A stretch of DNA of 32,000 bases from an uncultured Lentisphaeria bacterium (lineage in GTDB: Bacteria; Verrucomicrobiota; Lentisphaeria; JABSQK01; JAJFLO01): NCBI GenBank assembly GCA_951812855.1, contig OX638337.1, forward strand, positions 1,860,001 to 1,892,000, read 5' to 3'. This document shows positions 1 through 16,444 of the stretch, in pieces (within the stretch, counting starts at the first letter, position 1; each line of letters opens with the position of its first letter). The notes below the pieces were generated by a model. The model searched no databases and was not told where the DNA came from. It saw nothing but the letters and a program-made list of their open reading frames with translations. A program made the position numbers and the translations under genes.

Positions 1-942
1 ATCGCGAAGATTCGCTAGGGTTTTGTTTTCATTCGAATGGCTGCCCGCTTTCGCGAAAGCGGGAACGCCGAGTTCATCAAATTTAGCCAATACATTTCTA
101 CCTTGGGGGAGAGCGAGATGGTAGCTGTCAAAACATGAATTGTGGACTCTTTGACGTCCTGATGAGCCGATCATGCTCTGCTCGCAATGCTTTCTGAAAT
201 TCGAATCTCTCGCAAGACAAGCAATGAATGCCGTGCTCAAATCACCTTCGCTTCGAAAAACAATGAACTCGGTTGATCCAAATCCGACTGGATTCGCATC
301 CGTTAAGAAATCGACTACTCCAGTCTTACCATTTTCAAGGCACGGAGTAATTCTTGCCAAGAGAACATCGCCATTTTGGAATTTTGCCCCACCAGAATAA
401 GCCTTGTCAATTACTCCATCGATTGCGTAGCCGGACGTAGGAAGTGCTTTCATATCAGCAAATGGAGCAATATCTCCCTTCTTGAGCTTCGTCGGTGGAT
501 TGATGCTTATTGCTTTTGAAATAGTCATGACGTCCCACCCCTCGGGAATCCAGCCGAGTTGTTCGGTGAACTCGAAGGCGGCGGGGAAAAGAGAATGATG
601 AGTGCTAAGTGATGAATGATGAGAGGAGGAGTTTTCTGATTCAGCATTCAGCATTCTTAATTCAGCCTTCGCCTGCAATGCAGGCGGTATCGGATTGCCG
701 GCGGCGATGGCATTGTCGATCACCGGGTCAAAGTCCACAAACCAGCTCTTGAAAAATGCCTGTGCCATCCCTTCGAGCGTCGCATTCATCCGGTTATTCA
801 ACTCAATCTTGTCATCCAGTGATCCCAGGATGTGAGCAATCGCTTTCTGCTCGGGGAGAGGTGGGAGGGTTAGCTCGATGCTTTTGAGGGATGTTAAAGC
901 GTCTCCGAATCTGTTTCCACTTGTAGCGTGGATGGGTGTCTG
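1..942 (-). pseudogene. hsdS: 3' half of a type I R-M specificity subunit (HsdS): central conserved repeat plus second target-recognition domain; no start codon; runs off the left edge
   Basis: The minus-strand frame is open from 942 to beyond position 1, preceded by TGA/TAG at 943-948, with no Met near its 5' end. Translation reads ...ELTLPPLPEQKAIAHILGSLDDKIELNNRMNATLEGMAQAFFKSWFVDFDPVIDNAIAAGNPIP...LFPAAFEFTEQLGWIPEGW...GSSGRQRV...NKTLANLRD. This is the hallmark HsdS inter-TRD conserved region and the start of the C-terminal conserved region. It is absent from the ORF track because it is partial and start-less. Confidence 0.85.
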
Positions 943-991
943 CTATCAAGATGGGTATGTTGTTTACGTTCTCTTTTAACTTAGACGATTT

Positions 992-2701
992 TTATGAAAT
1001 CTCGTCTATCCAGTCTGATGGCTTGCCAGTAAAACGATTCAATAGCGGCGGGAGATTAGGACGTTGCCCATTAAAATAATCTTCTACTGAAAAAATCTGT
1101 ATTTTTGGGTAATTGCGGCCTTCAACTTCTATATTTTCTTGAGCGGCCGCACTGCGTATTTGCTTAGTAATCAGCGCATTTTTCATTACCACAAAAACAC
1201 CAAATGTTGCTTTCTCGCTGTTTATTGCACCAATAAAATCGCGTATATCGGCTGGTTTGATATTGCTTCCACCCTTTATCTGCGCTAAAACTGTTTTACG
1301 CTCCTCGTCTGGTTGGTTAGTAATAACATAGCCTTTGCCGTCCACACCGCGATCTCCCGTTTGCTTTTTATTCGGTGTAAGTCCAGTGATTTTTGCCACC
1401 GCCCAAGCCTCAAATTGAAAAGGATTGCGCTTAAATAAATCCCGAGCCGATGCCATATCATGAGGTGCGCCTTTTATGGTAAGCGTCTCGCCAAATCTGG
1501 CTTTATAGCCATCTTCGATAATAGCAATCGCAATATGCGTAATATCAATGCCGATGAATTGTCGCCGATTGTTACTGCTGCCATTCCCTTCAACATCACG
1601 GCAAACCCGAATTGTAGTACCACAACCGCAATAAGGGTCAAGTACGACATCGCCGGGGTTAGAGCTGACTTTGATAAATTGCCGCAATAACGCTTCCGGC
1701 TTTTGCGTATCATAGCCTAGGTACTCTTTATCTTTACCTTTGCTGTAATTAGTAAAGCCAGTGGGTGATAAGATCAAGTTTTGAGCAGGCTTTTTAGTAT
1801 CGGCCTGAGCGTAGCGTTTTAAGCCCGGCCATTTACCGTTTTTGGGATGATGGATAAGCCCGGCTTCATCCAAAGCATCCAAACGCTCATGAATCCCTTT
1901 TATTTGATCATAATGGGGAATAAAGTTGTCTTTTATGTAATCGGCATATTGCCCTTTGCCGATCTTGGGCACTGACCAGCAACGACCCATGGCAAACACA
2001 TCATAACCACGCCACGGTTGTGTACTAGGCGTACCTGCCTGTGCACTGTGTAAGGGGCCGGTTATATTGTCTGCACGGTAGCGTCCATGTTTATCCTGTG
2101 ATGGATAGGATTTTTTTATCTCGGCGAGGTTTTTTTGCGTAGCAATCGCTTGACCATTCCAGATGTAATCATTGCTTTTGCTGTAAAACAAAATGTAGTC
2201 GGTAATCCGCCCAAAACGCCTCGCATCATTGTGAGCAGTGGCACGGCGCCAAATAATAGTGTTTCTATAGTTGAACGGCTGAAAAATAGCATCTAACAAA
2301 ATTTTAATGTAATGCCCCGAGGTATCATCACAATGGAGATAAAGCGACCCAGTGTTTTTTAATAATCGGTGCATGTGATAAAGACGGGGGGCTAAATGAC
2401 ACAGATAAGCCAGCATCGGCGTTTTGGGTAGCATAGTTTTAATGCCTTGTATCGCTGTTGCCAGTTTGTTGTCTAAGATCAATGCTTTGTCCAGGTCTTG
2501 TACAGCCGTATCACCCCAGGACCAGGTATCGTCATAGGCTCTCACTTGTGCACCACTGCCAAATATCATGTTGTAATCGGCATTAGAATTAAATGGTGGA
2601 TCAAGATAAACCAGGTCAATGCTTTCATCAGCCCATTGCTCCATCCAAGCCAGATTGTCACCAAAATATAGCGTATTGGGTTTGATTTGATTGCTGTTCA
2701 T
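992..2701 (-). CDS. Beta-class (motif IV before motif I) N6-adenine/N4-cytosine DNA methyltransferase fused to a C-terminal Mrr-like PD-(D/E)xK restriction-endonuclease domain
   Basis: Catalytic motif IV is DPPFNS near the N-terminus and the SAM-binding motif I is VLDPYCGCGTT about 320 aa later, which is the beta-class order. The C-terminal ~150 aa read FEAWAVAKI...GDRGVDGKGYV...VLAQIKGG, matching the Mrr_cat pattern (FE...D-G-V/I-D-G...Q-x-K). The likely true start is ATG 2701 (MNSNQIKPNTLYFGDN), with GGGAG 6 nt upstream. The 12 extra codons in the ORF track (to 2737) are an out-of-frame read of the hsdM stub. Confidence 0.85.
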   Translation of the reverse strand: MNSNQIKPNTLYFGDNLAWMEQWADESIDLVYLDPPFNSNADYNMIFGSGAQVRAYDDTWSWGDTAVQDLDKALILDNKLATAIQGIKTMLPKTPMLAYLCHLAPRLYHMHRLLKNTGSLYLHCDDTSGHYIKILLDAIFQPFNYRNTIIWRRATAHNDARRFGRITDYILFYSKSNDYIWNGQAIATQKNLAEIKKSYPSQDKHGRYRADNITGPLHSAQAGTPSTQPWRGYDVFAMGRCWSVPKIGKGQYADYIKDNFIPHYDQIKGIHERLDALDEAGLIHHPKNGKWPGLKRYAQADTKKPAQNLILSPTGFTNYSKGKDKEYLGYDTQKPEALLRQFIKVSSNPGDVVLDPYCGCGTTIRVCRDVEGNGSSNNRRQFIGIDITHIAIAIIEDGYKARFGETLTIKGAPHDMASARDLFKRNPFQFEAWAVAKITGLTPNKKQTGDRGVDGKGYVITNQPDEERKTVLAQIKGGSNIKPADIRDFIGAINSEKATFGVFVVMKNALITKQIRSAAAQENIEVEGRNYPKIQIFSVEDYFNGQRPNLPPLLNRFTGKPSDWIDEIS

Positions 2702-2790
2702 TTTCCGCTCCCGCGAAGCCGGTTCGCCGAAGCCCACAGTGACTCTTCAAAGCCTTTATCGTTTTTCGCTGCTGCTTTTTTCTCAGTCAT
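2698..2790 (-). pseudogene. hsdM: 30-codon N-terminal stub of a type I R-M methylase subunit (HsdM)
   Basis: ATG at 2790 gives MTEKKAAAKNDKGFEESLWASANRLRGSGK*. GFEExLWxxAxxLRGS is the conserved HsdM N-terminal motif (normally followed by xxxxEYK...FLK). The frame stops at a TGA that overlaps the ATG of the downstream methyltransferase (ATGA at 2698-2701). Confidence 0.65.
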
Positions 2791-3029
2791 ATGAAATCCG
2801 GAGTCAATTCTGTGCAATTGATTTTAATAATTTGTAACTCGAAGGTATTGGAGGAAATGCTATTTTTAATTATTCACCCCGCAATCACGGTAATATCCCA
2901 TATCAATACGGTATAAACAATTATTTTTAAGGTAAAAGTTTTTTAAGCAGTCGATTCCTTTGTAAGGGGTGTCCTTGGTTTGATCCTTGGTTTCACACGC
3001 CTGTACTCCGACAAGCAAAGTGCGTCGAA

Positions 3030-3390
3030 TGGTGGAGGCGGGGGGAGTTGAACCCCCGTCCTAAATAAATACGACAACAGCCTCTACATGTTTAGTCTGC
3101 CTTTGGATTTATCGTCTCTCGGCCTGCCGGCAGACAGGGCTAACCTTAAGACTATTTTCCTGTTGGAGTTTCGCCCGGGTACCCGGAAACCCGATTCCCG
3201 AACTAACCTGATCGAGTCGCCTTCATCCCCTATCAGGTGTCAAGGTGAAGACGTCACCGACTTATCTTATGCGGCGAGTGCGAACTCTTCGTTTGCAGTT
3301 ATGTTTTTGACCGATGATTAACGAGGCCAACGATCATCCTCGACATGCCACTATTGCGTTACCTATCCAGTCGAATCCAGTTTCGCCCCC
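3030..3390 (-). ncRNA. ssrA: tmRNA (SsrA), 361 nt, encoded tag ANEEFALAA
   Basis: The minus strand begins GGGGGCGAAACTGGATTCGACTGGATAGG (5' acceptor/tRNA-like half). It ends GGACGGGGGTTCAACTCCCCCCGCCTCCACCA (T-arm plus acceptor plus CCA, 3030-3061). The internal tag reading frame is GCA AAC GAA GAG TTC GCA CTC GCC GCA TAA at 3296..3267, ending in the canonical ALAA. Confidence 0.96.
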
Positions 3391-3877
3391 GTGTATATAG
3401 AGAGTTTTGGTCAGTAACCTAACGGATAATTATACACCCAATATATAAAAAAAGTTTTAAAAGGTAAAGAATTATTCGATCATTTTTTTAATATATGTCT
3501 TGATATACATGAATCATTAAGTGTTATAGATGTATGAAAACAATAACGATATAAGCGGGCCTGTTTACAATAAGTTTAAATTTTAGGCGGAACAAAAGGA
3601 CCAAACAGCCTCTGAGATCACTGGAGTAAGTATAGAAGGATACAATAGATTTCATATTCGTGAACAGAATGGTTTAAGAACTTTGAGTCCAATTTCTGTG
3701 GGGAAGATTCATTAAAGACAGGGATATTTTGGGAGATATTTAAGAGTATTTATATTTATTATAGCAAATGATTTATTCTCATAATTGAGATTAAATTTTT
3801 CAATTTTGTATTAATATTATCACTTTAGTCTGATATGTAGTGTATACATTATACATCGGAGGTGAAGTGTGGTCAGA

Positions 3878-4106
3878 ATGCAAATATATTTGACAGAGAC
3901 TGAGCGTAATGCTTTGGCAGGCATTGCGTTGGAAACAGGCAAAAAACACAGTGAATTAATTCGAGAAACAGTAGATTGTTAATATCGAAAAAAATAGATC
4001 GAAAGATAAAGCAAGCTTATTACATCGAATGTCTGGAATGTGGAGTGATCGTCGTGATCTTCCTGATTTTGCGGAATTACGGCAGGAATGGGATAAAATT
4101 CAATAA
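3878..4106 (+). pseudogene. Ribbon-helix-helix (CopG/VapB-type) antitoxin, disrupted by a frameshift near 3975-3985
   Basis: MQIYLTETERNALAGIALETGKKHSELIRETVDC* (3878-3982) is an RHH N-terminus. The rest continues in another frame as IVNIEKNRSKDKASLLHRMSGMWSDRRDLPDFAELRQEWDKIQ*, ending at 4104-4106 and overlapping the next ATG (TAATG). GGAGGTG lies at 3859-3865, with an alternative in-frame GTG at 3869. Confidence 0.6.
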
Positions 4107-4281
4107 TGAGAGAGTTTTTAGTTGATACTAATATTTTTATTGATTTTTTCGTGGTCGTTCCAAGGTGGTAGAATTTATAAAAACGAATCGACTTTCCAAA
4201 GAAGCAATCGAAGCTGATGCGAATGATTTGAAATCTCTCGAAGAATTTGAGAAGAAAGCAACAAAGGGGGGCAAAAACTGA
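4106..4281 (+). pseudogene. PIN-domain toxin (VapC-type) N-terminal fragment, frameshifted in a T-run and truncated
   Basis: MREFLVDTNIFIDFF (the first conserved acidic residue of PIN domains lies in LVDTN) stops after 21 codons. Shifting frame at the T6 run (about 4146-4151) restores RGRSKVVEFIKTNR, typical of VapC. Similarity then ends (LSKEAIEADANDLK...GGKN*) near 4190, about 35 codons into what would normally be a ~130-aa protein. Confidence 0.6.
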
Positions 4282-4306
4282 TAGTTCAGGATTGACTCTG
4301 AAAAGT

Positions 4307-5161
4307 CTAAAACTTCATTAGAGGTAACCCGAATGGCACTATCCATATGGGCGATCCTAAATTTTTTTGATACCGGCTATTTATAAATTCATCTCCTGCC
4401 AGTTGCAAAAAATCATCTGGATTTAATTCACCTATATTGAAAGTAAGACTCAACCTTGGCATAACACCGGTAATCAGTCTTCGTGCACCACCTTTACCCA
4501 CATCTGACCATTTACCGGAATTTAATTTTCTCTTTATTGGAGAACTCATAGCACCTGTCTTAACGCGTTTCGTTTTCGGATCCTGATATAGTTTAAGAAC
4601 GAGTTTTAAATATTTCGGATTTCTCATTACATATTGCCTGCTGAACAGCTGTTCAACCGGGTCCCCCATTGAATCCATTCCATTCGGCTTTTTTTCCGTT
4701 CCGCATAAGAAGAATGGTGCAACTTCATTAAAATCCTTTACTAACCTGACCGGGGTAAGAACAGAATGTCTATAGGAAAGATCATGAATCTTGCCAATTT
4801 TCCATTTTCCAACTGACAAAATGTAATGCTCCTGGCGATTTGGTGGTTTTTTCGGAGGACGAAGTTGCTTGAAATAAAACAATGACAACCACGTCCAAAG
4901 ACCACAATCATTACGCATTTCATCTTTCCAGACGTCCTTTAATTTGTCCCAGAGATAAACACCAAACTCATGACGATGGGCAAATGATTTCTTTTCAATG
5001 GATACACCTAAACCCGAATCATAACTTTTTGGGGAATCAGTTAATAAATAAAAAGGGGGTTCTATTGATTCGCCATTTCTGGCCCTGTTTATATAATCTT
5101 GAAAATCTGAAATACCTTCATCTGTTAATTTTCGAATATTAATTGTCTTCTTTGTCCTCAA
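4307..5161 (-). CDS. Hypothetical protein, third gene (C) of the GHKL-ATPase operon; no recognisable family
   Basis: 284-codon ORF in the same orientation as the two upstream genes, overlapping gene B by 23 nt. Its start is apparently TTG at 5161, since no ATG occurs for 81 codons. Basic Lys/Arg-rich segments (PPKKPPNRQ, KRKLNSGKWSDVGKGGARR) are present. I could find no catalytic motif. Confidence 0.65.
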   Translation of the reverse strand: MRTKKTINIRKLTDEGISDFQDYINRARNGESIEPPFYLLTDSPKSYDSGLGVSIEKKSFAHRHEFGVYLWDKLKDVWKDEMRNDCGLWTWLSLFYFKQLRPPKKPPNRQEHYILSVGKWKIGKIHDLSYRHSVLTPVRLVKDFNEVAPFFLCGTEKKPNGMDSMGDPVEQLFSRQYVMRNPKYLKLVLKLYQDPKTKRVKTGAMSSPIKRKLNSGKWSDVGKGGARRLITGVMPRLSLTFNIGELNPDDFLQLAGDEFINSRYQKNLGSPIWIVPFGLPLMKF

Positions 5162-5906
5162 ATAAAAGGATTTTCTCTTTAACAGGATTAGTTTTTAACC
5201 AGGCATTGACGACATCATCAGCCCATTCTCTTATTTCATTTGGTGTTTCTGGGTCAAGTTCATCAGGTGATTTTATTCCTAAATTCGTAATAAAAGAAAT
5301 CCAGGCTTTTTTCCAGTCCGCATCAGTATTCGTCCGGGCCACATACTCCAATGCTTGATTTATTGCTTCGGGAATTATCAGAGCTCTGTAGTGAGGTTCG
5401 GCATCTTTTCCAAGCTTGTTAATCATCATTAAACCTGGATCGTTGTTTACAATGAGAATAGGCTGCGATCCTTCTCCGGCTTCAAGTCTCCAGAGTCTTT
5501 CACCAAGATCTCCCTGTTCAACAGGGAGGATAGGTGATGCTCCTTCCTCTTCTGTATCTTTTCTTGCAGCAAATCCTTCACATGAAGCAATAATCTTCTG
5601 TGTTTCAGGCTCACATATGAAAACTCTGAAGAGTAATGGTTTTAAGTTATCGATTTGAGAAAGACTATCAGAAAATGGAATCTTTGGTTCCTTAATAGTT
5701 CCGAGATTGATTCTATCCTCGGTGAATCCTGCATAGACAGTCATCCAGAGAGTTGAATTTTTGGGTAAACCATGTTTTTCAACTTCCAAGCTGTGCAGTA
5801 TAAAAGCATCCCGTTTATCTTCAATATAAGAAACTGAAATATCGATATCGCTCCGATCAATTCGTTTAATGCCAGTTGGGTTCGTCGTATGTGATTGAAA
5901 TTTCAT
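5139..5906 (-). CDS. Hypothetical protein, second gene (B) of the GHKL-ATPase operon; no recognisable family
   Basis: 255-codon ORF whose ATG (5906) overlaps the stop of gene A as ATGA (5903-5906). It has a beta-rich N-terminal half, an acidic central patch (RKDTEEEGASPILPVEQGDLGERLW) and a helical acidic C-terminus. No motif could be assigned. Confidence 0.7.
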   Translation of the reverse strand: MKFQSHTTNPTGIKRIDRSDIDISVSYIEDKRDAFILHSLEVEKHGLPKNSTLWMTVYAGFTEDRINLGTIKEPKIPFSDSLSQIDNLKPLLFRVFICEPETQKIIASCEGFAARKDTEEEGASPILPVEQGDLGERLWRLEAGEGSQPILIVNNDPGLMMINKLGKDAEPHYRALIIPEAINQALEYVARTNTDADWKKAWISFITNLGIKSPDELDPETPNEIREWADDVVNAWLKTNPVKEKILLFEDKEDN

Positions 5907-7747
5907 TCCGTGTTAACTCCTACTCTGGCCCGAACTCGTTGTTTTGAGCTGAATCCTGTAATTTCCAGGTAAAAATTTTTGTCGCTTATTTCATATTCGA
6001 TTAAATTCTCATTTCTACTTAAAATCTTCAGGTTTTCACATTTAAATTGTTCTTCCTTGAACTCGGAAAGATCAAAATCAAATGGATGATAATTAGAAAA
6101 TGGGTCACCAAAACCAGCCATTCTTTCATAAGCGACTTTAATTTTCCCGGTAACAGGATAAGAAATCTCGTTTCCCATTGCTGCAGGGCCCGGTTTTATT
6201 CTTATGCCTTGGCCATCATCAATATAAAGGAATTTTGGTCTGGATGGCAGCGTTTTTTTCCCTTGTTGTTTCTTTTTTCCTTTTCCTGAAGTTTTCTCTG
6301 ATTTTTTCTTTTTCCCTGAATAATCAGGTATAGATAAAATATCAACCAGAAGATCTTCCACTCTTTTTTCTTGACTTCCTCTGAGCATGTTAAAAAGCTT
6401 AGGCAAAGCATTCCGAACGTTTCGAATTGTGCTATGTCTATAATCATAATTTTCCCTTAGAGTATCTTCTTCCCTGTTCCATTGTAAATGAGAAGCAACT
6501 TCTGCGTTTGCCAGAAAGTCCGATATTTCCTCGTCCTCGGCAATTACCACAGCAAATACAGGCGACCTTTTGTTCAGGCTTTCTTCATCAGAGATTATCA
6601 AGTCACCCCTGACATAAATATGTTCACAGGAAGCCTGCTCTCTCTTTTGTATCCAGACTGTAATAAAAGAGCATACAGGTTTCTTATCTTTTGGATAAAC
6701 CATCACAGGAAATTTAATTCCGACATGCTTACCAAGATCAAAATTCTCCTTTATCTCGTCATATTTATTATTATTAAAGCTCTCCTCACTTAAAGGCTCT
6801 TCTTTCAACTTCCACCAGTCCTCTTTGGCGTGATACAGATCCTCTGGTTCTGAAGCATGAACATACTCAAGGAAAATAAGAAAATCTATGGATGGCTCCT
6901 CCCCGGCTAAATATGTTTCTGCAAGACCAATTAAATTAGACTCGGTAATTTTTTCACCACAGATTTCAATTTCAACTTTTGAGGAATATATCGTAAAGAA
7001 AAAATCTTTAAGAAGTGCTTTGATTAAATTTTCCCTGGATAGTGATTTTTGTGGAAATGGTATAATCCATGAGGTGCCCGGTTGACCAGGGTTTCTCTCC
7101 AGGCAGTAAGCATTTTTAAACTTTTCCAATATTTCGTTATCTGATGCAGGGATCGGTTGCTCTGGGTCGGAGCTGTCTTTTAAACCCCAGTAACAGTTTC
7201 TTCCATATTCCATTTCCTGAACTTCATAGGTGCTTGGGAAAACGCACTTCCCAAAAAGATGGCCGTATTTTTCCCCTTCTCTTGTGGATATTGACATTAA
7301 AGAATTTACAAGAGAGGCCATGTTATAAGTAATCTTACCTTCACCGGCCCGGCCCAATTCCCTTCCTTTTTTTGAAGCTTTTCCTTCGCCAAACCAGAAA
7401 TTTGCCCATCTTTCATCTTTTCCCTTTGCACCACTGTTATTCGTTTCCCCTGTTAATCCGCATGTGGAATATTCTTCAATGACTAATGCTTTGGGTTTAG
7501 AAAAATCAAGATCAGAACGATGAAAGCGTTTGTGTACTTCGAGGCAGGACGCTTTTAGGTGGGGCATTAGATCCTCTAGTATTTGTTGGTTGTAGTTCGC
7601 ATCCAAACCGGCAGTATTGTCTATTATCCGAATGGTAATTCGCGTTTTAGTTTCCGGCGTTTCTACCCGGGCATCAAGAAAATTCTGCATTAATTCCCGT
7701 ATAAAGATTTCAGCGAACTTCTTTGTTTCGCCAAGAAAATTATTCAT
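5903..7747 (-). CDS. GHKL/Bergerat-fold ATPase-domain protein (about 614 aa), first gene (A) of a three-gene operon
   Basis: N-box IRELMQNFLDA lies about 20 aa after Met 7747, with G1-like EEYSTCGLTGE and G2-like LGRAGEGKITYNMAS. It has a long unassigned middle region, a Lys-rich linker (SGKKKKSEKTSGKGKKKQQGKK) and a C-terminal domain of about 110 aa. The ORF track extends it to 8080, but residues 1-91 are a gltD-like remnant (see next feature). The alternative start is ATG 7807. Confidence 0.8.
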   Translation of the reverse strand: MNNFLGETKKFAEIFIRELMQNFLDARVETPETKTRITIRIIDNTAGLDANYNQQILEDLMPHLKASCLEVHKRFHRSDLDFSKPKALVIEEYSTCGLTGETNNSGAKGKDERWANFWFGEGKASKKGRELGRAGEGKITYNMASLVNSLMSISTREGEKYGHLFGKCVFPSTYEVQEMEYGRNCYWGLKDSSDPEQPIPASDNEILEKFKNAYCLERNPGQPGTSWIIPFPQKSLSRENLIKALLKDFFFTIYSSKVEIEICGEKITESNLIGLAETYLAGEEPSIDFLIFLEYVHASEPEDLYHAKEDWWKLKEEPLSEESFNNNKYDEIKENFDLGKHVGIKFPVMVYPKDKKPVCSFITVWIQKREQASCEHIYVRGDLIISDEESLNKRSPVFAVVIAEDEEISDFLANAEVASHLQWNREEDTLRENYDYRHSTIRNVRNALPKLFNMLRGSQEKRVEDLLVDILSIPDYSGKKKKSEKTSGKGKKKQQGKKTLPSRPKFLYIDDGQGIRIKPGPAAMGNEISYPVTGKIKVAYERMAGFGDPFSNYHPFDFDLSEFKEEQFKCENLKILSRNENLIEYEISDKNFYLEITGFSSKQRVRARVGVNTE

Positions 7748-7807
7748 AGCGATGGTTTTACCACGCTGATCTTTGGGGGCAAGTTTTGGAAAATCCCACT
7801 CGAGCAT

Positions 7808-8249
7808 TTTTGCAGCTCGTGCACAGGATCGTGCACAGTCAACAGCAGTAAATCCACCGCCAACAATCACGACATCCTGACCTTTCATCTCCCTGATTTC
7901 TCCATAATTAAACTTTTTCATGAAATCAAGACCTGGAATCTCCATTCCTTCTTCCATTCCCGGAAGTTTTAAGTCAGAAGGTCGAACTGAACCAACGGAA
8001 ACTAAAACGGCATCATAATCGTCGATAATTTTTGACATTAATTCGGCATCGATATATTGGCCGGTTTTAACAGTAACCAATCGTGCGTCTGAAGTAAAAT
8101 TCGTTGAATGAATCAGGGGTTCTTACCCCATTCCTGACCAATTCTTTTTGCATATTGGGCAAAGTTCTTCTGCGATCCCATGTCAACCTGGGTCGAGTTT
8201 TATGTTTTTTATTCTCATACTCAAAGCCAGCAAATGTTTTCTGCTCCAC
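7808..8249 (-). pseudogene. Remnants of a glutamate synthase small-subunit-like (GltD family) NAD(P)H oxidoreductase gene
   Basis: DYDAVLVSVGSVRPSDLKLPG...GQDVVIVGGGFTAVDCARSCARAAKM aligns with the GltD segment DYDAVFLGVGT...[26 protein letters not shown] (second Rossmann GGGxxAxD). The 60-aa ORF at 8067-8249 (QKTFAGFEYENKKHKTRP...) weakly resembles a GltD N-terminus. About 200 aa between the two pieces and everything after AAKM are missing. Confidence 0.6.
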
Positions 8250-8382
8250 TATTATCCCCCTGCATTGTCGTTGGGATAATTGTGCTAATTACTACAATTG
8301 TTCAGATATTCCTTAGTTAGTTTGTTTTTTCTTAACGTATAACGGTATAGGTGAAGTAACCTTCCTGGTCGTCTGTATGTAG

Positions 8383-9138
8383 TTACCCTTGGAAAATATT
8401 ATCACGGTGGTAGACTAGAAAATCACTACTTGGCTTGAATTTATCCGGGCACGAAATTGTCTTTCCTTCATATCTTTTTATGGTGCTTTTATAAAACTCA
8501 TCGGATGTCATATCTTTTTCAGAGATTATGATTGTCATATCATCTTGGATAGCAATTAACCCCATATCAAACGCCTTGTCATGGAGCACAGATAAGCAAA
8601 GTCCATTGCTGGGATTCAGACGATTTTCAGTATCTTCCCGCCAAGGTACAATATGACTTGCTACCAGCAGTTTTGGCATCGATAATCCACTGATACAACA
8701 TTTACTATTGTAAGCACTTAAAACAGATTTTCTAAAGAATTGTTGTCCAATACGTGCGTTAATTTTTGTTTCTTTCGTATGCCCGGAATAATTTTTTATT
8801 TCTGCCTTTGGATAATCCTCTTGTTCCGGTATTATTTGACCTAACGCTTTTGAGGATTCAACCACAAAAGTTCCCCAATTATTGTTCATCTCTCGCCACA
8901 TCTGTTTATCAGCCATTGATGCACCCGATAGACCTTTCCTTCCTGTTGCAGTAAGTTCAGGATCAAGGCTTGCAATATTGACTAACTTCATAGCCACAGC
9001 AGATGGCGTTCTTCCAATAGACTCGGCAACTTCAATGATTGTTGGATTGCGAGAGTGCATTTTTCCAAAAGGCATCTGACAGTACAAACCAAATGCCAAG
9101 AGTAATTCATGCCTTTCCCAATTTCTTCTTGCGTTCAT
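8383..9138 (-). CDS. HNH-family endonuclease (COG3183 / HNH_2-like putative restriction endonuclease)
   Basis: The C-terminal half reads RIGQQFFRKSVLSAYNSKCCISGLSMPKLLVASHIVPW...NPSNGLCLSVLHDKAFDMGLI. This fits the RxGQxxFRxxLLxxYxxxCxxxG...L.AsHIxPW...NGLxLxxxxHxxFDxGxI pattern. The N-terminal region (WERHELLLAFGLYCQMPFGKMHSRNPTIIEVAESIGRTPSAVAMKLVNIASLDP) is typical of the same family. Confidence 0.85.
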   Translation of the reverse strand: MNARRNWERHELLLAFGLYCQMPFGKMHSRNPTIIEVAESIGRTPSAVAMKLVNIASLDPELTATGRKGLSGASMADKQMWREMNNNWGTFVVESSKALGQIIPEQEDYPKAEIKNYSGHTKETKINARIGQQFFRKSVLSAYNSKCCISGLSMPKLLVASHIVPWREDTENRLNPSNGLCLSVLHDKAFDMGLIAIQDDMTIIISEKDMTSDEFYKSTIKRYEGKTISCPDKFKPSSDFLVYHRDNIFQG

Positions 9139-9390
9139 TTTTTGATCAACTTTTTTATTGAGTCGCGATTATCTTTTCCCAAAGATATTTGCAACGCAGA
9201 GCATTCTGCTGCCTTCCAGTATTTATTATTTTCGGCAATAAGTTCTTCTTTAGAAATCCTTAAAGCAAGATAATCATAATAACTATCTGGAACATCCCCG
9301 GGACAAAATGAGTGAAAAACCCTCTGACAATCCTCCTGGTCCCGCAAACAAATCAATAACGGGTACTTGTTCTATTTTGTTTGAATTCAT
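9135..9390 (-). pseudogene. dcm: 5' stub of a C5 cytosine DNA methyltransferase gene (motif I only) followed by unrelated open frame
   Basis: ATG 9390 gives MNSNKIEQVPVIDLFAGPGGLSEGFSLILSRGCSR* (stop at 9283-9285). VIDLFAGxGGLSxGF is C5-MTase motif I. No motif IV (PCQ), VI (ENV) or X could be found in any frame before the HNH start. The 73-aa track ORF (9135-9356) is another frame of this region and ends in ATGA with the HNH start. Confidence 0.6.
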
Positions 9391-9414
9391 ACCTGATTTT
9401 CATTTCTGAAACAA

Positions 9415-9903
9415 TTAATATTGCTTACTTTCTTCAGCGACTTCCAAGTATTCCGCATCCAATAGGGGATAGACAGCTAATCGATTCCGTAAAATAACAT
9501 TAAGACCAGTAATCTCTTTTGTTTCACATTCCCAAATTACCAGTACATTCCAACCCATTTCCTGAAGTTTATTTTCAAATTTTCGTGCATTTTCGACATT
9601 CTTCTTAAATTTTTCCTGCCAGAATGCAGCATTGGTTTTTGGTGAGGTACATCCTCTACAACCTTTGTGACGGTGCCAAAAACAGCCATGGACAAAGATA
9701 ACAGTCTTATGTTTTGCCAAAACAATATCCGGTTTTCCCGGCAGTCGTCCGGCTGGATACAATTTCTTTGAGACTTTACCCTGAAGCCGATATCGGTAAC
9801 CCAGTGCATGTAGTTGTGAGCGGACAATCTTTTCCGGTTTTGTATTCTCAGACCGGATCCGGCTCATATTCCAGCTGCGTTTTTTTACTGATAAATGATC
9901 CAT
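9415..9903 (-). CDS. vsr: Very short patch repair endonuclease (Vsr, T:G mismatch endonuclease)
   Basis: KRSWNMSRIRSENTKPEKIVRSQLHALGYRYRL...LPGKPDIVLAKHKTVIFVHGCFWHRHKGC...PKTNAAFWQEKFKKNVENARKFENKLQEMGWNVLVIWECE matches the Vsr family along its full length. Confidence 0.9.
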   Translation of the reverse strand: MDHLSVKKRSWNMSRIRSENTKPEKIVRSQLHALGYRYRLQGKVSKKLYPAGRLPGKPDIVLAKHKTVIFVHGCFWHRHKGCRGCTSPKTNAAFWQEKFKKNVENARKFENKLQEMGWNVLVIWECETKEITGLNVILRNRLAVYPLLDAEYLEVAEESKQY

Positions 9904-10296
9904 TTAAACAAAATGTACAAGTCTGATTTACTGTCTTATTAATATTATTTTATATCTCAATTTTGTACTGCTGATCCTAAACTAAAATTATCTTTCTCGA
10001 TTACCACCTTTCCCGTCAAATTATGTAAAATGGTAATCAGTCGATCCTTAAAAACGATTTAATATACTTGTTTCAATATGTTATGTATTATATTCAGTTG
10101 ATGAAATGACCGAAAAATTAACTGTTTATCCCTTGTATACGTTGATGTTGATATGATAAATTATAGTGAAGTTGTTACTGCAGCGGGTCCTGACAGCATT
10201 GCGAAAACACGGTCAGGGATGTACCGCCGGAACTCAGAAAAAAATTCGGAGAGCTTGATCGCAGAAAATGATTATTCGAGATAAAGAAATAACTGC

Positions 10297-13200
10297 ATGA
10301 ATGTTTCATTTAAGAAAATAACAGTTTTAATATGTGCTTTTTGGGCGATGATTTTACAGGGTTATGGGGAAACATATTCCTGTCACGGAGGAATTCACAC
10401 AACATCTCCGATTACATCTGCCGGAAGTCAGGCACGGTCAGATATACCCCGGGCGAATCGGTGGAGTAATGATGGGACAAATACCGTGGTTACGTTTAGT
10501 TTTGTTCTAACCCCGTATACTATAGATAAAGCAGCCGGTCATGATGCCGGCATTGAAATAAAGCCGATAATCAACGAGTCGAAAAAAGTTACTGACCCTG
10601 TCAGGTACCCGGCAGATACTTACCAATTGATTCTAAAGGCATTTGAAGCCTGGGAAGCGGTTGCTGACATCAGTTTCAAAGAACTCAATGAGGCAGATGG
10701 AAATATTGGTCAAATTCGGATTGCCAAGCATAAATTTAGTCAGCCGTTTGTTTTGGGACATGGATTTTTCCCCCCGTCAAAATTCAATGATGTTGCAGAA
10801 AATGATATTAGCGGGGATTTACACTTGAAATCTTTAAAAAATTGGAAAAGGCAAAAGGGATTGCTCTTTGCTGCAGTAGTACATGAAATTGGTCATAGTC
10901 TGGGGTTACAACATCTCTTTGCGACTGCAAGAAATGTAAATGAGGTTGAAAAAATTCTACCATTAACTAAAACCGATAATGTTATCATGTACGGCGAAAT
11001 TGGAAATAATGCAGGGCCGTTATCGAATAGCGACAAGGCGTATATCCAATCCTTATATAATCCACCGTCAGCTAAGATTATAAATGGAAATGGAAGAACA
11101 ATTTCCTGGCAGTTTCCACATGATCCTTTTATTTCTTCAAACGGGAATTCTGGATTCAATCCCTTAGATATTAACCAGAATGATACCGGTAACCCATTTA
11201 CTGCCAGGTATACTGGTCAATTTGCAGTAAATGTTAAGGTCCAGTTTTCGACAATGATAATTTCCAATCCGAGTGATCTGACTGACTTGGATAATAAAAC
11301 GATTCCGGAAAATATAAAATCAGAATTTGCAAATCATAATACAGGAACTTCCCCGTCATTGACATCAAGTGCATCTGTAACAGTGATCTCTCCGGGAAGT
11401 GAATGGCAAATTGAAGATCGGGGAGCGGTTTCATTACCTCGCAAATATATACTGAAAAAGGTAAACAATACCCTGGAGTTTTTTGAAATTGCGTTTAACA
11501 AAAATGATGTTTCTATAACGAGTTTGGTGCAGTCTTGTCCCTTAAAACATTTCAGGATTCAACGGGTTCCTCTAGTATTAAACGCCCTGGTGACCGATAA
11601 TGCCAAACGTGCTGCGAATAAATTATTTGATGATACCATTAACGATGGGAAATCATTATATTGGACACGGGTTGATAATGGCTATCTTTTAGAGATTAAA
11701 AATGCCCCGACAGTGAATGCCAGATTACCGTTAATAACGCCGCTTATCGCAACGGATTCAACAGTCTGGCGGTTTACCAGATCGTATATATTATCCAGTG
11801 ATCAAACTATCAAATATAGGGTTTTTGATGCAGATGGAAATTTAGTAACTGCGTTAAGCTCATCGGAATCAGGAGCTGAGCTAGAGCCCAATGTTCCTTC
11901 TTCTGTTCCTTCTTCAAAGCGTCAAGTCGATTTGTCCACACTTGAATATCAGAAGTTTTCGGTTGACTATTTTTTCACCAGAGGCGACGCTTTGCCATAT
12001 GAACTAGTGCATATCAACGATATTGAATTTGAAAATGTGTTGACAGAGAATGGTAACTATGTGTTATTTGACGCTGTGATTCCAACATCTGAATCATCAT
12101 TTTTGGTGAATGAAGTATCTTCAATTGATTCAGACTATGGTTTTAGAACAGTTTCTGTTTACAATGATAATTATTCGGTAACCTCAAGTCCTGTGTTCTT
12201 CAGAGTGTTGGGACCGGCTGTTAAAAATGTGAATGCTGTTCCAGCTGATAAAACGTATAACGCTTCCGATATCAATACCGTTATCACGTTAGAAATCGTT
12301 TTTACAACTAAAGTTATCGTTACTATCCAAGATAATAATATGCCTCCGACATTGTCTTTAGATAATGTCTTCGGAGGTTCAGCAGAATATCAATCCGGAT
12401 CAGGGACAAACACGTTAAAATTTCGTTATACAATTACAAAAAACGATAATACGTTTGGTAAACCATTGAATTATTCTTCAACGAAAGCTTTAGATCCCGG
12501 GGGCAGTACACTCACAGACAGTAATAGTACGATTGATCTAACCCTTCCTGAGCCAGATTCTTCAAATTCATTGGGTTCAAGTAATATTTTAATTGATACG
12601 ATTACGCCGATTGTAACTGTGAATCGTAAATCAACAAACGATACGACTCCTGATCTAAGCGGAACGATAGATGATAATTCCGCTTCTGTTTCAGTTTCAA
12701 TTGATGGTGAATCAGCTGTGGTTGCTGAGAATCGTGGAAATCGTACATGGCTGTTGCCGGGCACATTTATTGAAGAATTATCGGACGGGATTCATGAAAT
12801 TCAGGTAACAGCAACGGATTCAGCCGGCAATGTCGGAACGGATTCAACAACATCAGAACTTATAATTGATACTCGAGTATTAACCATTTTAAATGCCTTT
12901 ATTGCTGCAGATAACCGTTATATTGAACTTCGTTTCAATAACGGGGTTTATGGTGACAAATTGAAGTCATCACCAGTTGGTCTCGATGATTTTGACCTGT
13001 CTGTAAACGATGCCGGTGTCATGAGGAATTCTGTAAAATTTACAAAAATTGATGGCAGGGATCTTGAAGGCGGGGAATCGAATATTCGTATTGAATTTAG
13101 TTTGTCCGTGGCAGCAGATAAAAATGATATTATTACAATTGAACCTAAACCAAATTCAATATACGATGGAAATGGTATTGCATTAACAGGCAAAAACCTG

Positions 13201-14046
13201 CAACCTGTCAGAATTAAGCTCAATGAGATTGACAGTCTTCCCGAATTTACAGTAACATTAAATGTTGACCCAACACCAATTCCGCTGACATTTGGACAGG
13301 CTGATACCATCATGGATCCGATTACAAAAGCTTCTTCTTCATCCATATTTTATTTTGAATACAATTCTGAAAAGATTAAGAAACAATTAAATCCATTATC
13401 AGAGACGCCGACCCGATGGATTCTGAAATTTAGTCCAGATTCAGGGCAGACCGGACATATTTCCTGGGAGATTTCTAACACTAATCCGAATTACAGAGTC
13501 TACTTGCAAAAGATAAATGGTGGAGGAAATACTAATAATACCTTTGATCTAACGGATTCAAATTTGAAGTCTATTCCGGTTTCTGAAACGTCAACGTTCA
13601 AACTGGTTTATGGTCCACTTCTAATTGAAACTGTACCTGCATTAGCTGTTGGATGGAATTTAGTCAGTATGCCTCTTATCCTGACGAAAGCCATTGATAA
13701 GATTTTCGCAGACACAGTCCGATATCCAATTTGGTTCTGGGATGGAGATACATTTCAGCTAATGACCAATAATAATGCATTATTACCGAATATTGGGCAT
13801 TGGATCTACTTTAATAAAAGCACCAGAGTAACTCAAATTGAAGGAATAGCGGACAATTCAAAAGTAACTGTCGGAGATGGCTGGAATTTGATTGGAACGC
13901 CAGGAGAAATATTGTCGTTGTCGAATATGCCTGACAGTGATCATATTCAGAGTGCCTGGAAATACAATTCAACCTATACCCAATTTGAAAAAGTGACAGG
14001 TTCACTCAGTCCCTTTCATGGTATGTGGATATTTAGGAAAGAATAA
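10297..14046 (+). CDS. Large secreted protein: N-terminal matrixin-like metzincin zinc protease domain, Ig-like repeats, C-terminal duplicated GWNL-motif domain
   Basis: Signal-peptide-like N-terminus (KKITVLICAFWAMILQGYG). The zinc motif VVHEIGHSLGLQH (HExxHxxGxxH, His196 at nt 10882) is followed by a Met-turn-like VIMYG. A bacterial Ig-like segment reads DTITPIVTVNRKSTNDTTPDLSGTIDDNSASVSVSIDG...HEIQVTATDSAGNVGTDSTT. The C-terminus contains the motifs GWNLVSMP and GWNLIGTP. Confidence 0.8.
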   Translation: MNVSFKKITVLICAFWAMILQGYGETYSCHGGIHTTSPITSAGSQARSDIPRANRWSNDGTNTVVTFSFVLTPYTIDKAAGHDAGIEIKPIINESKKVTDPVRYPADTYQLILKAFEAWEAVADISFKELNEADGNIGQIRIAKHKFSQPFVLGHGFFPPSKFNDVAENDISGDLHLKSLKNWKRQKGLLFAAVVHEIGHSLGLQHLFATARNVNEVEKILPLTKTDNVIMYGEIGNNAGPLSNSDKAYIQSLYNPPSAKIINGNGRTISWQFPHDPFISSNGNSGFNPLDINQNDTGNPFTARYTGQFAVNVKVQFSTMIISNPSDLTDLDNKTIPENIKSEFANHNTGTSPSLTSSASVTVISPGSEWQIEDRGAVSLPRKYILKKVNNTLEFFEIAFNKNDVSITSLVQSCPLKHFRIQRVPLVLNALVTDNAKRAANKLFDDTINDGKSLYWTRVDNGYLLEIKNAPTVNARLPLITPLIATDSTVWRFTRSYILSSDQTIKYRVFDADGNLVTALSSSESGAELEPNVPSSVPSSKRQVDLSTLEYQKFSVDYFFTRGDALPYELVHINDIEFENVLTENGNYVLFDAVIPTSESSFLVNEVSSIDSDYGFRTVSVYNDNYSVTSSPVFFRVLGPAVKNVNAVPADKTYNASDINTVITLEIVFTTKVIVTIQDNNMPPTLSLDNVFGGSAEYQSGSGTNTLKFRYTITKNDNTFGKPLNYSSTKALDPGGSTLTDSNSTIDLTLPEPDSSNSLGSSNILIDTITPIVTVNRKSTNDTTPDLSGTIDDNSASVSVSIDGESAVVAENRGNRTWLLPGTFIEELSDGIHEIQVTATDSAGNVGTDSTTSELIIDTRVLTILNAFIAADNRYIELRFNNGVYGDKLKSSPVGLDDFDLSVNDAGVMRNSVKFTKIDGRDLEGGESNIRIEFSLSVAADKNDIITIEPKPNSIYDGNGIALTGKNLQPVRIKLNEIDSLPEFTVTLNVDPTPIPLTFGQADTIMDPITKASSSSIFYFEYNSEKIKKQLNPLSETPTRWILKFSPDSGQTGHISWEISNTNPNYRVYLQKINGGGNTNNTFDLTDSNLKSIPVSETSTFKLVYGPLLIETVPALAVGWNLVSMPLILTKAIDKIFADTVRYPIWFWDGDTFQLMTNNNALLPNIGHWIYFNKSTRVTQIEGIADNSKVTVGDGWNLIGTPGEILSLSNMPDSDHIQSAWKYNSTYTQFEKVTGSLSPFHGMWIFRKE

Positions 14047-14112
14047 TCCTGCAAATGAAGATACCACGAATTATCTTGAGTTTTGGTTAATGAATGAACA
14101 TAACGGCGAATA

Positions 14113-15093
14113 ATGAAATCAATATTGCTAACAGGTGGTGCTGGATATATAGGAAGCCATACAGCAAAGCTGCTCTGTCAAAAAGGGTATAGACCCGTTG
14201 TTTTTGATAATCTCAGTATAGGGCACCAATGGGCTGTCAACCGGGGGCCTTTTGTAAAAGCAGACCTTGCTGATAAAGATCAAATTCGCCAAACACTCGA
14301 AGATTATGAGATTGAAGCTGTTGTTCATCTTGCGGCCAGTGCATATGTTGGTGAATCCATGGAAAATCCACGAAAATACTTTCGTAACAATGTCGTTAAT
14401 TCCACGAATTTGCTTGAGGCAATGGATGACGCAGGAGTGAAGAAAATTGTTTTTTCATCAACATGTGCCCTGTATGGAAATCCTGAAACCCTGCCATTGA
14501 CCGAGTCTCACAGGAAACACCCAATCAATCCCTATGGAGATAGTAAATTATTCGTTGAACATATGTTGAAATGGCATGGAGAAGTATATGGATTAAACTG
14601 GACAGCACTCCGATATTTTAATGCCGGCGGTGCTGATCCTGATTGTGAAATTGGAGAAGATCATGATCCTGAAACCCATTTAATTCCACTCGTTATCTAT
14701 GCAGCACTGGGAAAAATAAAACAATTGAAGGTTTTTGGTACTGATTATGAAACTCCTGATGGTACCGCAATTCGAGATTATATTCATGTTAATGATTTGG
14801 CATCAGCACATTTGGCTGCACTGGAAAAATTAGATAAAAAATCTACTGAAAATGTATTCAACCTGGGAACTGGAATAGGTAATTCAGTAAAAGAAGTCAT
14901 AAAATCAGTTGAAAAAATTACAGGACTGAAGGTCCCTTTTCAAGAGAGTCCCAGACGCATGGGGGACCCGCCGGCTCTGGTCGCAGATTCACAATTAGCT
15001 CGAAATAAACTGGGCTGGGTGCCAAGCTGTCAAAGTCTGGATGATATTGTTGAAACAGCGTGGAACTGGCATAAAAAACATCATTGTTCTTAA
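14113..15093 (+). CDS. galE: UDP-glucose 4-epimerase
   Basis: ILLTGGAGYIGSHT (NAD-binding GxxGxxG), SSTCALYG...YGDSK (catalytic S/YxxxK), DGTAIRDYIHVNDLA, and a length of 326 aa all fit GalE. Confidence 0.92.
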   Translation: MKSILLTGGAGYIGSHTAKLLCQKGYRPVVFDNLSIGHQWAVNRGPFVKADLADKDQIRQTLEDYEIEAVVHLAASAYVGESMENPRKYFRNNVVNSTNLLEAMDDAGVKKIVFSSTCALYGNPETLPLTESHRKHPINPYGDSKLFVEHMLKWHGEVYGLNWTALRYFNAGGADPDCEIGEDHDPETHLIPLVIYAALGKIKQLKVFGTDYETPDGTAIRDYIHVNDLASAHLAALEKLDKKSTENVFNLGTGIGNSVKEVIKSVEKITGLKVPFQESPRRMGDPPALVADSQLARNKLGWVPSCQSLDDIVETAWNWHKKHHCS

Positions 15094-15126
15094 CTGTCCA
15101 AATACTCCCGGTCTTACTCTTAATTC

Positions 15127-15189
15127 TTACTCATAATCATAATCCAATTCTGGTAAGGGACGTATGGATTGGATTATGATTATGAGTAA
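15127..15189. repeat. Perfect 22-bp inverted repeat (hairpin, 19-nt loop) between convergent galE and ferredoxin genes; possible bidirectional terminator
   Basis: TTACTCATAATCATAATCCAAT (15127-15148) and its exact reverse complement ATTGGATTATGATTATGAGTAA (15168-15189). The stem is AT-rich and has no adjacent U-tract, so terminator function is uncertain. Confidence 0.6.
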
Positions 15190-15361
15190 AAGGATGAATG
15201 ATTTGAATATAAAGAAAATTTTATGATAACGATAAACAATTGTTCCTCTTTAGTTAATTGATGAGCAGTACGTTTATTCGATATTACATGTGAGTTATTT
15301 TTCGAAGGTCTAATTATAATAAAATTAATGGGTGCCAATCTAAAACAACAAATTAAACGCT

Positions 15362-15640
15362 TTAATCTTTTGCAAGCGGTTCTTTTTTTTCTATAATTAC
15401 AGGAAGAACTTGTGATTTTTCAGCATTTAATTTAATATAGTGCTGCCATTCTTCCGGAACATCTTCTTCTTCAAAAATAGCTTCAACCGGACATTCAGGA
15501 ACACAGGCTCCGCAGTCGATACATTCTTCAGGATCAATATACAATATTGTTTCACCCTCATGAAAACAGTCAACAGGACAGACCTCAACGCAATCCGTAT
15601 ATTTACATTTATCACATGGTTCTGTTACTATATAAGCCAT
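15362..15640 (-). CDS. fdxA: 7Fe-type ferredoxin ([3Fe-4S][4Fe-4S], FdxA-like)
   Basis: [28 protein letters not shown]...[22 protein letters not shown] closely parallels Azotobacter-type FdxA ([21 protein letters not shown]...CIDCALCEPECP). Confidence 0.9.
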
Positions 15641-16203: not shown

Positions 16204-16444
16204 ATCAGTTTCCCAGACATCATCATAGACGATGACGTACCCTAATATGGCAGAAAATATAAACAAACAATTAAAGCAACGAAGACGAAGGGCATCACTT
16301 TTCCCAAACGAGGCATCACTGCTCAGACTGGCAAGTGCCATTTTGATCGAAATCAGTAACCAACGGGACGCTGGAAAACCGGACCTGAAAATGGATGATC
16401 AGTGACCCGCGATTATCAAATGACAGAAAGAAAACTGCATTACC
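16204..16444 (+). mobile_element. IS256-family insertion sequence remnant: 3' end of the transposase gene plus IS terminus (copy A)
   Basis: The plus frame reads YPNMAENINKQLKQRRRRASLFPNEASLLRLASAILIEISNQRDAGKPDLKMDDQ*. This is the conserved IS256 transposase C-terminus (xNxxExxNxxxKRRTRxxxxFPNExSxLRLxxAxLxExxxxW). An in-frame stop lies at 16226-16228, and possible degenerate transposase sequence (SFPDII) lies just upstream. It is about 85% identical to the inverted copy at 30924-31166. Confidence 0.75.

Follow-up and report, generated by a model that had tools for sequence, protein, structure and literature searches.

Introduction

Bacterial ATPases that combine a GHKL with an S5 domain were described by Iyer, Abhiman and Aravind in 2008 (PMC2292703) as MORC and paraMORC1–5 groups of predicted restriction-modification (R-M) operons, in which their neighbours are cytosine methylases, Vsr and nucleases of the EcoRII-like and HNH types. 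In the same published account, a superfamily II helicase is part of about 70% of MORC operons, and the paraMORC2 family is described as carrying an ExxxH motif and as being mainly cyanobacterial and Gram-positive. For VcSduA, a paraMORC3-type Shedu protein in which a GHKL ATPase is fused to a DUF4263 PD-(D/E)xK nuclease, anti-phage defence has been demonstrated experimentally, and it depends on the ATPase as well as on the nuclease (PMC12137116). Here we analyse a stretch of 32,000 nucleotides from an uncultured Lentisphaeria bacterium (GenBank assembly GCA_951812855.1, contig OX638337.1, positions 1,860,001 to 1,892,000 of the forward strand; hereafter the window), in which three coupled genes, A, B and C, encode a GHKL ATPase and two partner proteins (Table 1). 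A first-pass annotation, made from the sequence alone, had put this trio forward as a candidate undescribed defence system. We find that A-B-C is a real, widespread and uncharacterised module of a general kind that was predicted in 2008, and that the copy in the window is incomplete and orphaned.

Literature searches on bacterial MORC proteins and on defence linking GHKL ATPases with the C5 cytosine methylase Dcm returned no description of an A-B-C system, so that, as far as experiments in the searchable literature are concerned, the trio is indeed undescribed. Likewise, we found no experimental test, for the A family, of the 2008 prediction that GHKL ATPases act in methylase-linked restriction.

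Relation of A-B-C to described systems

Like the MORC and paraMORC proteins, A joins an N-terminal GHKL domain to an S5/transducer domain, and the loci that encode it share with the MORC and paraMORC operons the cytosine methylase, Vsr, EcoRII-like and HNH genes, as well as a patchy, laterally mobile distribution. The likeness to paraMORC2 extends to a motif, E436xxxH440, placed right after the transducer of A, and by architecture, context and motif A fits paraMORC2 as that family is set out in its published description. There are also differences: among the neighbourhoods examined, a superfamily II helicase stands beside A-B-C at a single locus (L100, as a PLD-SNF2 fusion) and is absent from the window, and the clusters of recurrent neighbours include no helicase family, which departs from the MORC pattern, and the genomes in which A-B-C was found belong to Proteobacteria and Acidobacteriota, which departs from the paraMORC2 one. 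The window itself is unlike the MORC and paraMORC operons in that it retains only a 78-nt dcm remnant and no intact Dcm.

A further relative is the PADLOC model PDC-M33A, which matches all 60 sampled A proteins over the first ~290 of its 627 positions (3–289 for the protein of the window), with a best E-value of 3e-33 among the 60 and of 2e-20 for A of the window. Although the length of this profile is close to that of A, the C-terminal half of A is left unmatched, and B, C and the small protein s75 introduced below match no PADLOC model, whether taken from the window or from loci of the sister group. The match is limited to the GHKL half, and PDC-M33A represents a related family and not that of A; our literature search found no paper mentioning PDC-M33. 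Given this match to the N-terminal 290 residues and the Dcm- and Vsr-containing MORC/paraMORC operons predicted in 2008, the trio, which the first-pass annotation could not match to any named GHKL immune system, does have relatives among the known GHKL systems. The A family is thus half-seen by PADLOC and not covered by Pfam or NCBIfam models, and it comes with two obligate partners of unknown fold and a small conserved protein; A-B-C could be added as a system to defence-prediction tools.

Other described systems share single traits with the trio. VcSduA is likewise a bacterial GHKL ATPase, but it is a single protein with a nuclease of its own and no methylase link, whereas A has no nuclease, two separate partners and an associated Dcm. 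Detocs and other two-component systems differ from A, B and C, in which Pfam finds no match to HisKA, HATPase_c or Response_reg, and the structural neighbours of A are of the topoisomerase, Hsp90 and MORC types. Compared with classical Type II R-M systems, the window has no intact cognate methyltransferase (26 dcm codons remain), while the sibling version of the locus in the same assembly (L006, described below) has an intact one. In BsuMI of Bacillus subtilis, one or more genes for 5-methylcytosine (m5C) methyltransferases lie next to a three-gene restriction operon whose subunits are not known to be GHKL proteins; as in A-B-C, three genes stand by an m5C methylase, and we take this likeness as a lead only.

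A-B-C is inherited as a unit and linked to cytosine methylases

We surveyed the trio in a local hidden Markov model (HMM) census of 87 non-redundant loci, in which the denominators given below are the loci with enough room or flanking sequence. The order A>B>C, whose conservation the first-pass annotation had proposed as a check, was found in 69 of the 69 non-redundant loci with room downstream. Of the 32 loci flanked on each side by 2.5 kb or more, 27 carry a Dcm gene and 22 a Vsr gene. Dcm often lies less than 50 bp from the trio or overlaps it at the gene ends, and does so across phyla, while its position and orientation relative to A-B-C vary between loci. Directly upstream of A, 36 of 76 loci encode s75, a conserved protein of 75 aa with the motif RLIGNLSN..NY.Y...DV.KI, which is missing from the window and present in the sibling locus (L006 7114–7341). 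No family matches s75, for which the best PADLOC hit (0.026) is at chance level; a role as regulator or as fourth subunit is possible.

The same arrangement recurs at greater evolutionary distance. In the genomes of eight species, belonging to the Alpha-, Beta- and Gammaproteobacteria and to the Acidobacteriota, s75-A-B-C is adjacent to Dcm, and distant A homologues (25–40% identity) all occur as A-B-C beside a C5 methylase, usually together with Vsr and a small upstream gene. In L001 and L006, a cassette consisting of only Dcm, Vsr, s75 and A-B-C is set between housekeeping genes. The three-gene operon is therefore not the complete unit for which it had been taken, since the usual form is (Vsr)-Dcm-s75-A-B-C and both Dcm and s75 are absent in the window.

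Pairwise-identity matrices are highly correlated within the trio (r=0.90 for A-B, 0.91 for A-C and 0.89 for B-C), and the correlation between A and Dcm is low (r=0.30, Spearman 0.11), indicating that the trio is one evolutionary unit whose methylase partner has been exchanged over time. Taken together, the census shows that the trio is obligately co-inherited and that its linkage to m5C methylases and to enzymes of T:G repair is tight, yet flexible.

Restriction endonucleases of the EcoRII-like (6 loci) and MvaI/BcnI-like (4 loci) types and, at several loci, HNH nucleases recur among the neighbours, which also include insertion sequence (IS) elements. Where Dcm is missing, the trio is found with a PLD-SNF2 fusion (L100), an HNH_2 nuclease (L057), unknown proteins (L036, L085) or HicB and Cas3 (L095). 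At five loci without Vsr (L011, L062, L075, L084 and L086), a gene for a glycosylase of the HhH-GPD/EndoIII type stands beside Dcm, and this enzyme may be a functional stand-in for Vsr in T:G repair.

The A family is not rare and spans several phyla. An HMM search of 1.84 billion representatives returned 1367 proteins at E<=1e-30, of which the best 150 are nearly all full length, so that, at 50% identity, the family has no fewer than 1367 clusters; a word-index search alone had yielded 31 A clusters and had suggested a rare family. A metagenome scan with an alignment of a sister subgroup (GRWGLGK and ENPAHT motifs) returned at least 519 confirmed relatives. On plasmids, the search gave one weak match, and a search of phages for the trio gave none. 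The only match in a viral collection (IMG/VR UViG_2684623073_000001; L017 7662–8555) comprises s75 and a truncated A of 187 aa.

Layout of the trio and start codons

The three co-directional, coupled minus-strand open reading frames (ORFs) that had been read from the sequence are confirmed by the ORF list, by the ATGA at 5906–5903, which holds both the stop of A and the start of B, and by the 23-nt overlap of B and C. Strong homologue matches, with E-values down to 0, mark all three as real genes and not chance ORFs, and 4-nt stop/start overlaps are also present in homologous loci. The long ORF that holds A spans 5903..8080 (725 aa from TTG 8080), within which the first-pass annotation had started the gene at Met 7747 (~614 aa). 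Homologues and the gene call in the sibling haplotype instead place the start at Met 7807 (MLEWDF...), as both begin with MLxWxF, in which W4 is nearly invariant.

For C, in contrast, the start proposed at TTG 5161 holds: the ancestral ATG (ATGACGATTAAT in L008, an 83%-identical homologue) has become AAG in both haplotypes (window 5147–5149), which leaves the upstream TTG (5159–5161) as the sole canonical start. The last ~22 residues of C are specific to the lineage, and this tail extends into what is left of vapC.

Gene A has the predicted fold of a GHKL ATPase with a transducer

In alignments of 29, 60 and 148 A sequences, the N-box residues R37, E38, Q41, N42 and D45 are invariant. Invariant, too, are G117 and G120 of a variant G1 motif (E-[ED]-[FY]-x-T-x-G-L-x-G) and G152, G157 and K158 of a G2 motif of the form GR[AW]GxGK. 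Across the 148 sequences, G244 is also invariant, R400 and W443 are invariant or nearly so, and a conserved AE[VEN][AP][SA]H..W, with E436 nearly invariant and H440 invariant, follows just past the last transducer beta-alpha unit; the C-terminal domain has conserved columns at Y560, D577, F578, N601, G618 and F619.

An AlphaFold2 model built on the 148-sequence alignment has a mean predicted local distance difference test (pLDDT) score of 91.7. Foldseek comparison of this model with the PDB returned Topo VI-B (1.4e-11), TRAP1 (6.5e-8), MORC4 (2.5e-7) and GyrB 43K (3.6e-7), with a probability of 1.0 for Topo VI-B, TRAP1/HtpG, MORC3/4 and GyrB over ~500–750 aligned columns, and in a viral structure library the matches were ATPase subunits of phage type II topoisomerases and RIIA. 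Because the Foldseek alignments reach well past residue 250, A has a transducer besides the GHKL domain. A is thus a member of the GHKL ATPases in which a transducer follows the ATP-binding domain; ATP hydrolysis is predicted for it, and R400 may contact the ATP gamma-phosphate by analogy with the basic transducer residue of the Topo VI-B, MutL, Hsp90 and GyrB engines. The GHKL motifs first picked out by eye thus prove to be invariant family columns within a fold borne out by AlphaFold2 and Foldseek, and the Lys-rich linker and the beta-rich C-terminal domain described at the same time are both present in the model.

At the level of sequence profiles, no Pfam or NCBIfam model matches A or 59 sampled relatives, the Pfam GHKL models including HATPase_c_3 (E<=0.01) among them. 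In contrast to the Topo VI-B, MutL, Hsp90/TRAP1 and GyrB 43K engines, A-B-C has neither a Topo VI-A/Spo11-like or Toprim partner nor the C-terminal endonuclease motif of MutL; A shares ~10% sequence identity with these engines and ends in a different C-terminal beta domain, and B and C are unrelated to known cofactors.

Genes B and C match no described family

B and C, both from the window and from distant homologues, have no match in Pfam, NCBIfam or PADLOC, and profile searches of A, B and C against PDB sequences returned nothing meaningful, including those with profiles of B and C that are 75 and 61 sequences deep. Aligned by hhalign to Vsr, HNH_2, Dcm, EcoRII-like, MvaI/BcnI-like and HhH-GPD proteins and to A, the proteins B, C and s75 reached probabilities of at most 0.7%, and the N-termini of B and C aligned to each other at 7%, which is not significant. 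An AlphaFold2 model of C (14-sequence alignment) is confident only over residues 1–100, and with this model, confident over that part alone, Foldseek found no match below E=3. The two partners are thus as unrecognisable in every library tried as they had appeared by eye.

Both proteins nevertheless have conserved positions, namely N9, T11, R65, G69, R94, W139, N154 and W202 across the broad B family, and R131, H132, R228, D242 and E258 in C. The window has kept every invariant residue of the three proteins. The roles of B and C would show how a clamp-type ATPase couples to cytosine methylation in bacteria. As a separate observation, Asp242 of C (~4436–4438), which 90% or more of 61 family members share, is Asn throughout the clade of the window.

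A recent replacement removed dcm and s75 from the window

The locus is present in two forms in the same metagenome assembly, one on a primary contig of 1.94 Mb (L006) and one on an alternate contig of 18.5 kb (L007). L007 is 100% identical to window 1–15161. L006 reads Vsr-Dcm-s75-A-B-C, with a Dcm of 538 aa that matches PF00145 at 3.5e-44 and an s75 of 75 aa, and outside the replaced segment it is collinear with the window at 99.4% (blastn). In the window, the body of dcm and s75 are replaced by a segment containing an HNH_2 gene and an internal fragment of a gltD-like gene, the latter not present in the sibling haplotype; on the left, dcm breaks off directly behind motif I, and the right junction is 4 nt upstream of the ATG of A. 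Since a remnant of dcm persists, it is the haplotype of the window that is derived.

The two haplotypes are distinguished by one synonymous change in B and by none in C. This near identity indicates that the loss of Dcm is too recent for decay and that the intact trio reflects recency. The first-pass annotation had taken the operon for a recent insertion or a block under selection; our comparison points to a recent replacement upstream of the operon, and its intactness, explained by recency, is no evidence of selection. The neighbours that it had named as broken, dcm, gltD, vapB and vapC, are so, and the neighbouring HNH_2, Vsr and MTase-Mrr genes are intact. A itself (window 5906–7807 against L006 7355–9256) shows 13 non-synonymous and 3 synonymous codon differences, a pattern that could reflect relaxed or diversifying constraint on A, or a recombination boundary near its 3' end. 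Decay of A specific to the window was considered and set aside, as derived changes, judged by eye, occur on both haplotypes.

A single event that removed Dcm together with the upstream region of the operon would be a viable way to lose the M of an R-M pair. The joint loss of Dcm, s75 and the region upstream of A is what would be expected if M cannot go while R is active, and hints at such a dependence. In the window, the trio is orphaned and probably silent or inactive. As haplotypes with Dcm and s75 and with HNH_2 in their place co-exist in a single species, they constitute a natural experiment that poses the question whether the trio endangers unmethylated self DNA.

The incoming HNH_2 gene belongs to a protein family which, according to the family literature, takes in the Type II enzymes AlwI, BbrI and HphI, and the same subfamily (E ~1e-60) is found at A-B-C cassettes of three unrelated lineages. 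At L021 the order is A-B-C-Dcm-HNH_2 (HNH_2 at 6496–7308); at L018 (1–1074) and L020 (2–532), HNH_2 stands where the otherwise identical L019 has A and the opening third of B. Homology among these loci stops at the ends of the HNH ORF. Judged from such comparisons, HNH_2 looks like a mobile restriction-type gene that invades A-B-C loci, and it might still act as a partner.

Table 1 Features of the window (positions count from its first letter)
Feature	Position	Strand	Description
Gene A	5903..7807	-	634 aa; GHKL ATPase, transducer, Lys-rich linker and C-terminal beta domain; stop codon 5903-5905
Bergerat (GHKL) ATP-binding domain, A residues ~1-250	7058..7807	-	N-box RELMQNFLDA, G1-like EEYSTCGLTG, G2 GRAGEGK; boundary approximate, from secondary structure of the model
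Transducer (S5-like) region, A residues ~251-480	6368..7057	-	R400, E436xxxH440 (AEVASH), then a long helix; boundaries approximate
Lys-rich low-confidence linker, A residues ~495-525	6233..6325	-	KKKKSEKTSGKGKKKQQGKK; pLDDT <50 for residues 505-519
Beta-rich C-terminal domain, A residues 527-634	5906..6229	-	AY..., FDFDL and GF motifs; all-beta in the model, pLDDT 80-98
Gene B	5139..5906	-	255 aa, ATG start; no family or PDB match
Gene C	4307..5161	-	284 aa from TTG 5161; no family or PDB match
Replacement segment	7812..9312	.	1501 bp (HNH_2 gene and gltD fragment) in place of L006 5317-7350, 2034 bp (dcm body and s75)
dcm remnant	9313..9390	-	78 nt, first 26 codons through motif I (FAGPGGLSEGFS); collinear with codons 1-26 of L006 dcm, then divergent
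gltD-like (NAD(P)-binding oxidoreductase) internal fragment	7808..8080	-	91 codons, in frame with A; Pyr_redox_2 1.3e-7, PRK12771 3.3e-13
HNH_2 nuclease gene	8383..9138	-	251 aa, H-N-H motif intact; Pfam HNH_2 1.7e-12; PADLOC 'HNH' PDLC04132 9e-121; Type II HNH 1.6e-45
vsr	9415..9903	-	intact; Pfam Vsr 1.6e-25, PADLOC Vsr 3.8e-27
MTase-Mrr fusion (N6/N4 DNA methylase and Mrr-type nuclease)	992..2737	-	581 aa, intact; just past the tmRNA 3' end
tmRNA gene	3030..3390	-	Rfam 199 bits; tag peptide ANEEFALAA
Broken vapB-like gene (RHH)	3878-3979	+	six-frame translation, by eye
Broken vapC-like gene	PIN N-terminus 4106-4150, frameshifted continuation 4144-4278	+	by eye; abuts the 3' end of C

Proposed function and alternatives

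We favour, with a probability of about 0.5, the reading that A-B-C is the effector half of a Dcm-linked, ATP-dependent, R-M-like defence system of the MORC/paraMORC kind. In such a system, a dimer of A would close on DNA as a clamp or loop it upon ATP binding, like Topo VI-B, MutL and MORC, and its obligate partners B and C would provide target discrimination and/or cleavage or would recruit a neighbouring nuclease. Methylation by Dcm would mark host DNA as self, with Vsr or the HhH-GPD glycosylase mending the T:G damage that arises from m5C. The window would have been derived from this state by one replacement, which took Dcm, s75 and everything upstream of the start codon of A and brought in the HNH_2 gene and the gltD fragment. 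In line with this proposal, the surroundings of A-B-C are of a restriction type, with EcoRII-like, MvaI/BcnI-like and HNH nucleases, the PLD-SNF2 fusion and Cas3.

Several observations weigh against it. As the first-pass annotation had remarked, no effector is visible: searches of A, B, C and s75 with Pfam, NCBIfam, PADLOC, PDB profiles and hhalign against the neighbouring nucleases gave no nuclease, helicase or other effector fold, and B has no conserved acidic residue. The exchange of Dcm lineages fits poorly with a sequence-specific reader tied to one methylase, 5 of the 32 well-flanked loci have no Dcm, and at ~16 loci a classical restriction endonuclease stands beside the same Dcm, so that A-B-C may not be the restriction enzyme. 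The strain of the window, moreover, is alive with an intact A-B-C and no Dcm at the locus. Between HNH_2 and A, the minus strand has no predicted site resembling a terminator, in scans for promoters and terminators that gave fewer sites than shuffled sequence and were thus uninformative; read-through expression is therefore possible and, if it occurs, A-B-C is not lethal to unmethylated self DNA. The missing nuclease signature, the indifference to Dcm lineage and the survival of a strain that keeps A-B-C without Dcm would all be accounted for if A-B-C, with or without s75, were a non-nucleolytic, methylation-linked DNA clamp, a MORC-like machine that loads on DNA lacking the m5C of the host and blocks its replication or expression uncut, although we regard this as very unlikely. 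In that case, it would be the prokaryotic equivalent of MORC silencing in eukaryotes and would include two novel protein folds.

Some of the same evidence could instead point to repair, in that A-B-C could be a MutL-like helper against m5C damage that loads at or signals T:G mismatches and stimulates Vsr or a Mig-like glycosylase, as E. coli MutL does Vsr, a functional interaction on record in the literature (PMC6116569). We consider this quite unlikely, even though the link to an m5C methylase is constant while the methylase lineage changes, Vsr (22 of 32 loci) or, at five Vsr-less loci, an HhH-GPD/EndoIII glycosylase is at hand, searches give A-B-C no nuclease domain, some loci already own a separate classical restriction endonuclease, and the window has kept Vsr and A-B-C together. 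A repair helper would hardly be expected to show a patchy, horizontally mobile distribution amid IS elements and defence genes, or to pair with a PLD-SNF2 fusion or HNH_2 where Dcm is missing, and at several loci with Dcm and A-B-C, Vsr and a glycosylase are both missing from the sequence examined. Vsr commonly accompanies Dcm genes in general, and this may make its link to A-B-C uninformative. The trio could also be an independent defence module, either a guard triggered by inhibition or loss of the Dcm-type R-M system next to it, for which PrrC with EcoprrI is a precedent, or an abortive infection system, in both cases with no methylation-based marking of self and non-self. An exchangeable methylase of variable position and orientation, its absence from 5 of 32 loci and the classical restriction endonucleases at some loci would agree with such a module, and a non-nuclease effector would explain the absent nuclease motifs; however, adjacency to Dcm in 27 of 32 loci across phyla is tighter than ordinary co-occurrence in defence islands, and in the strain of the window, which lives without Dcm, a guard should have fired unless silenced, and we judge the module unlikely. 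Equally doubtful is that the swap in the window made a working, methylase-less HNH_2 plus A-B-C system with HNH_2 as its nuclease partner. Its HNH motif and the invariant residues of A, B and C are intact, no terminator is predicted between HNH_2 and A, and HNH or HNH_2 genes lie beside A-B-C in several independent loci (L021, L035, L052 and L057), of which L057 is A-B-C-HNH_2 with a 15-nt gap and no Dcm within 2.5 kb; L100 similarly couples A-B-C to a PLD-SNF2 nuclease-helicase without Dcm. Yet an HNH gene is present in only ~5 of 69 loci, the subfamily is invader-like in that it destroys A and part of B at L018 and L020, its loci are homologous over the HNH ORF alone, and the in-frame gltD pseudogene junction, with s75 and the native upstream region lost, looks like an illegitimate replacement.

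Other genes in the window

The defence-type stretch of the window is confined to positions ~1–10 kb, and 14113–31847 is taken up by ordinary Gram-negative housekeeping genes (epimerase, LysM protein, Mur ligase, response regulator, FtsW/RodA, MazG, RsmB, RecC, Lnt and MlaC). A search for repeats found none that would bound an island. The transfer-messenger RNA (tmRNA) gene was considered as the integration site of the cassette and rejected, as the trio lies on its 5' side, with the broken vapB- and vapC-like genes in between, and not at its 3' end. On the other side of this gene, the methyltransferase-Mrr (MTase-Mrr) fusion differs from the sibling haplotype by 14 single-nucleotide polymorphisms.

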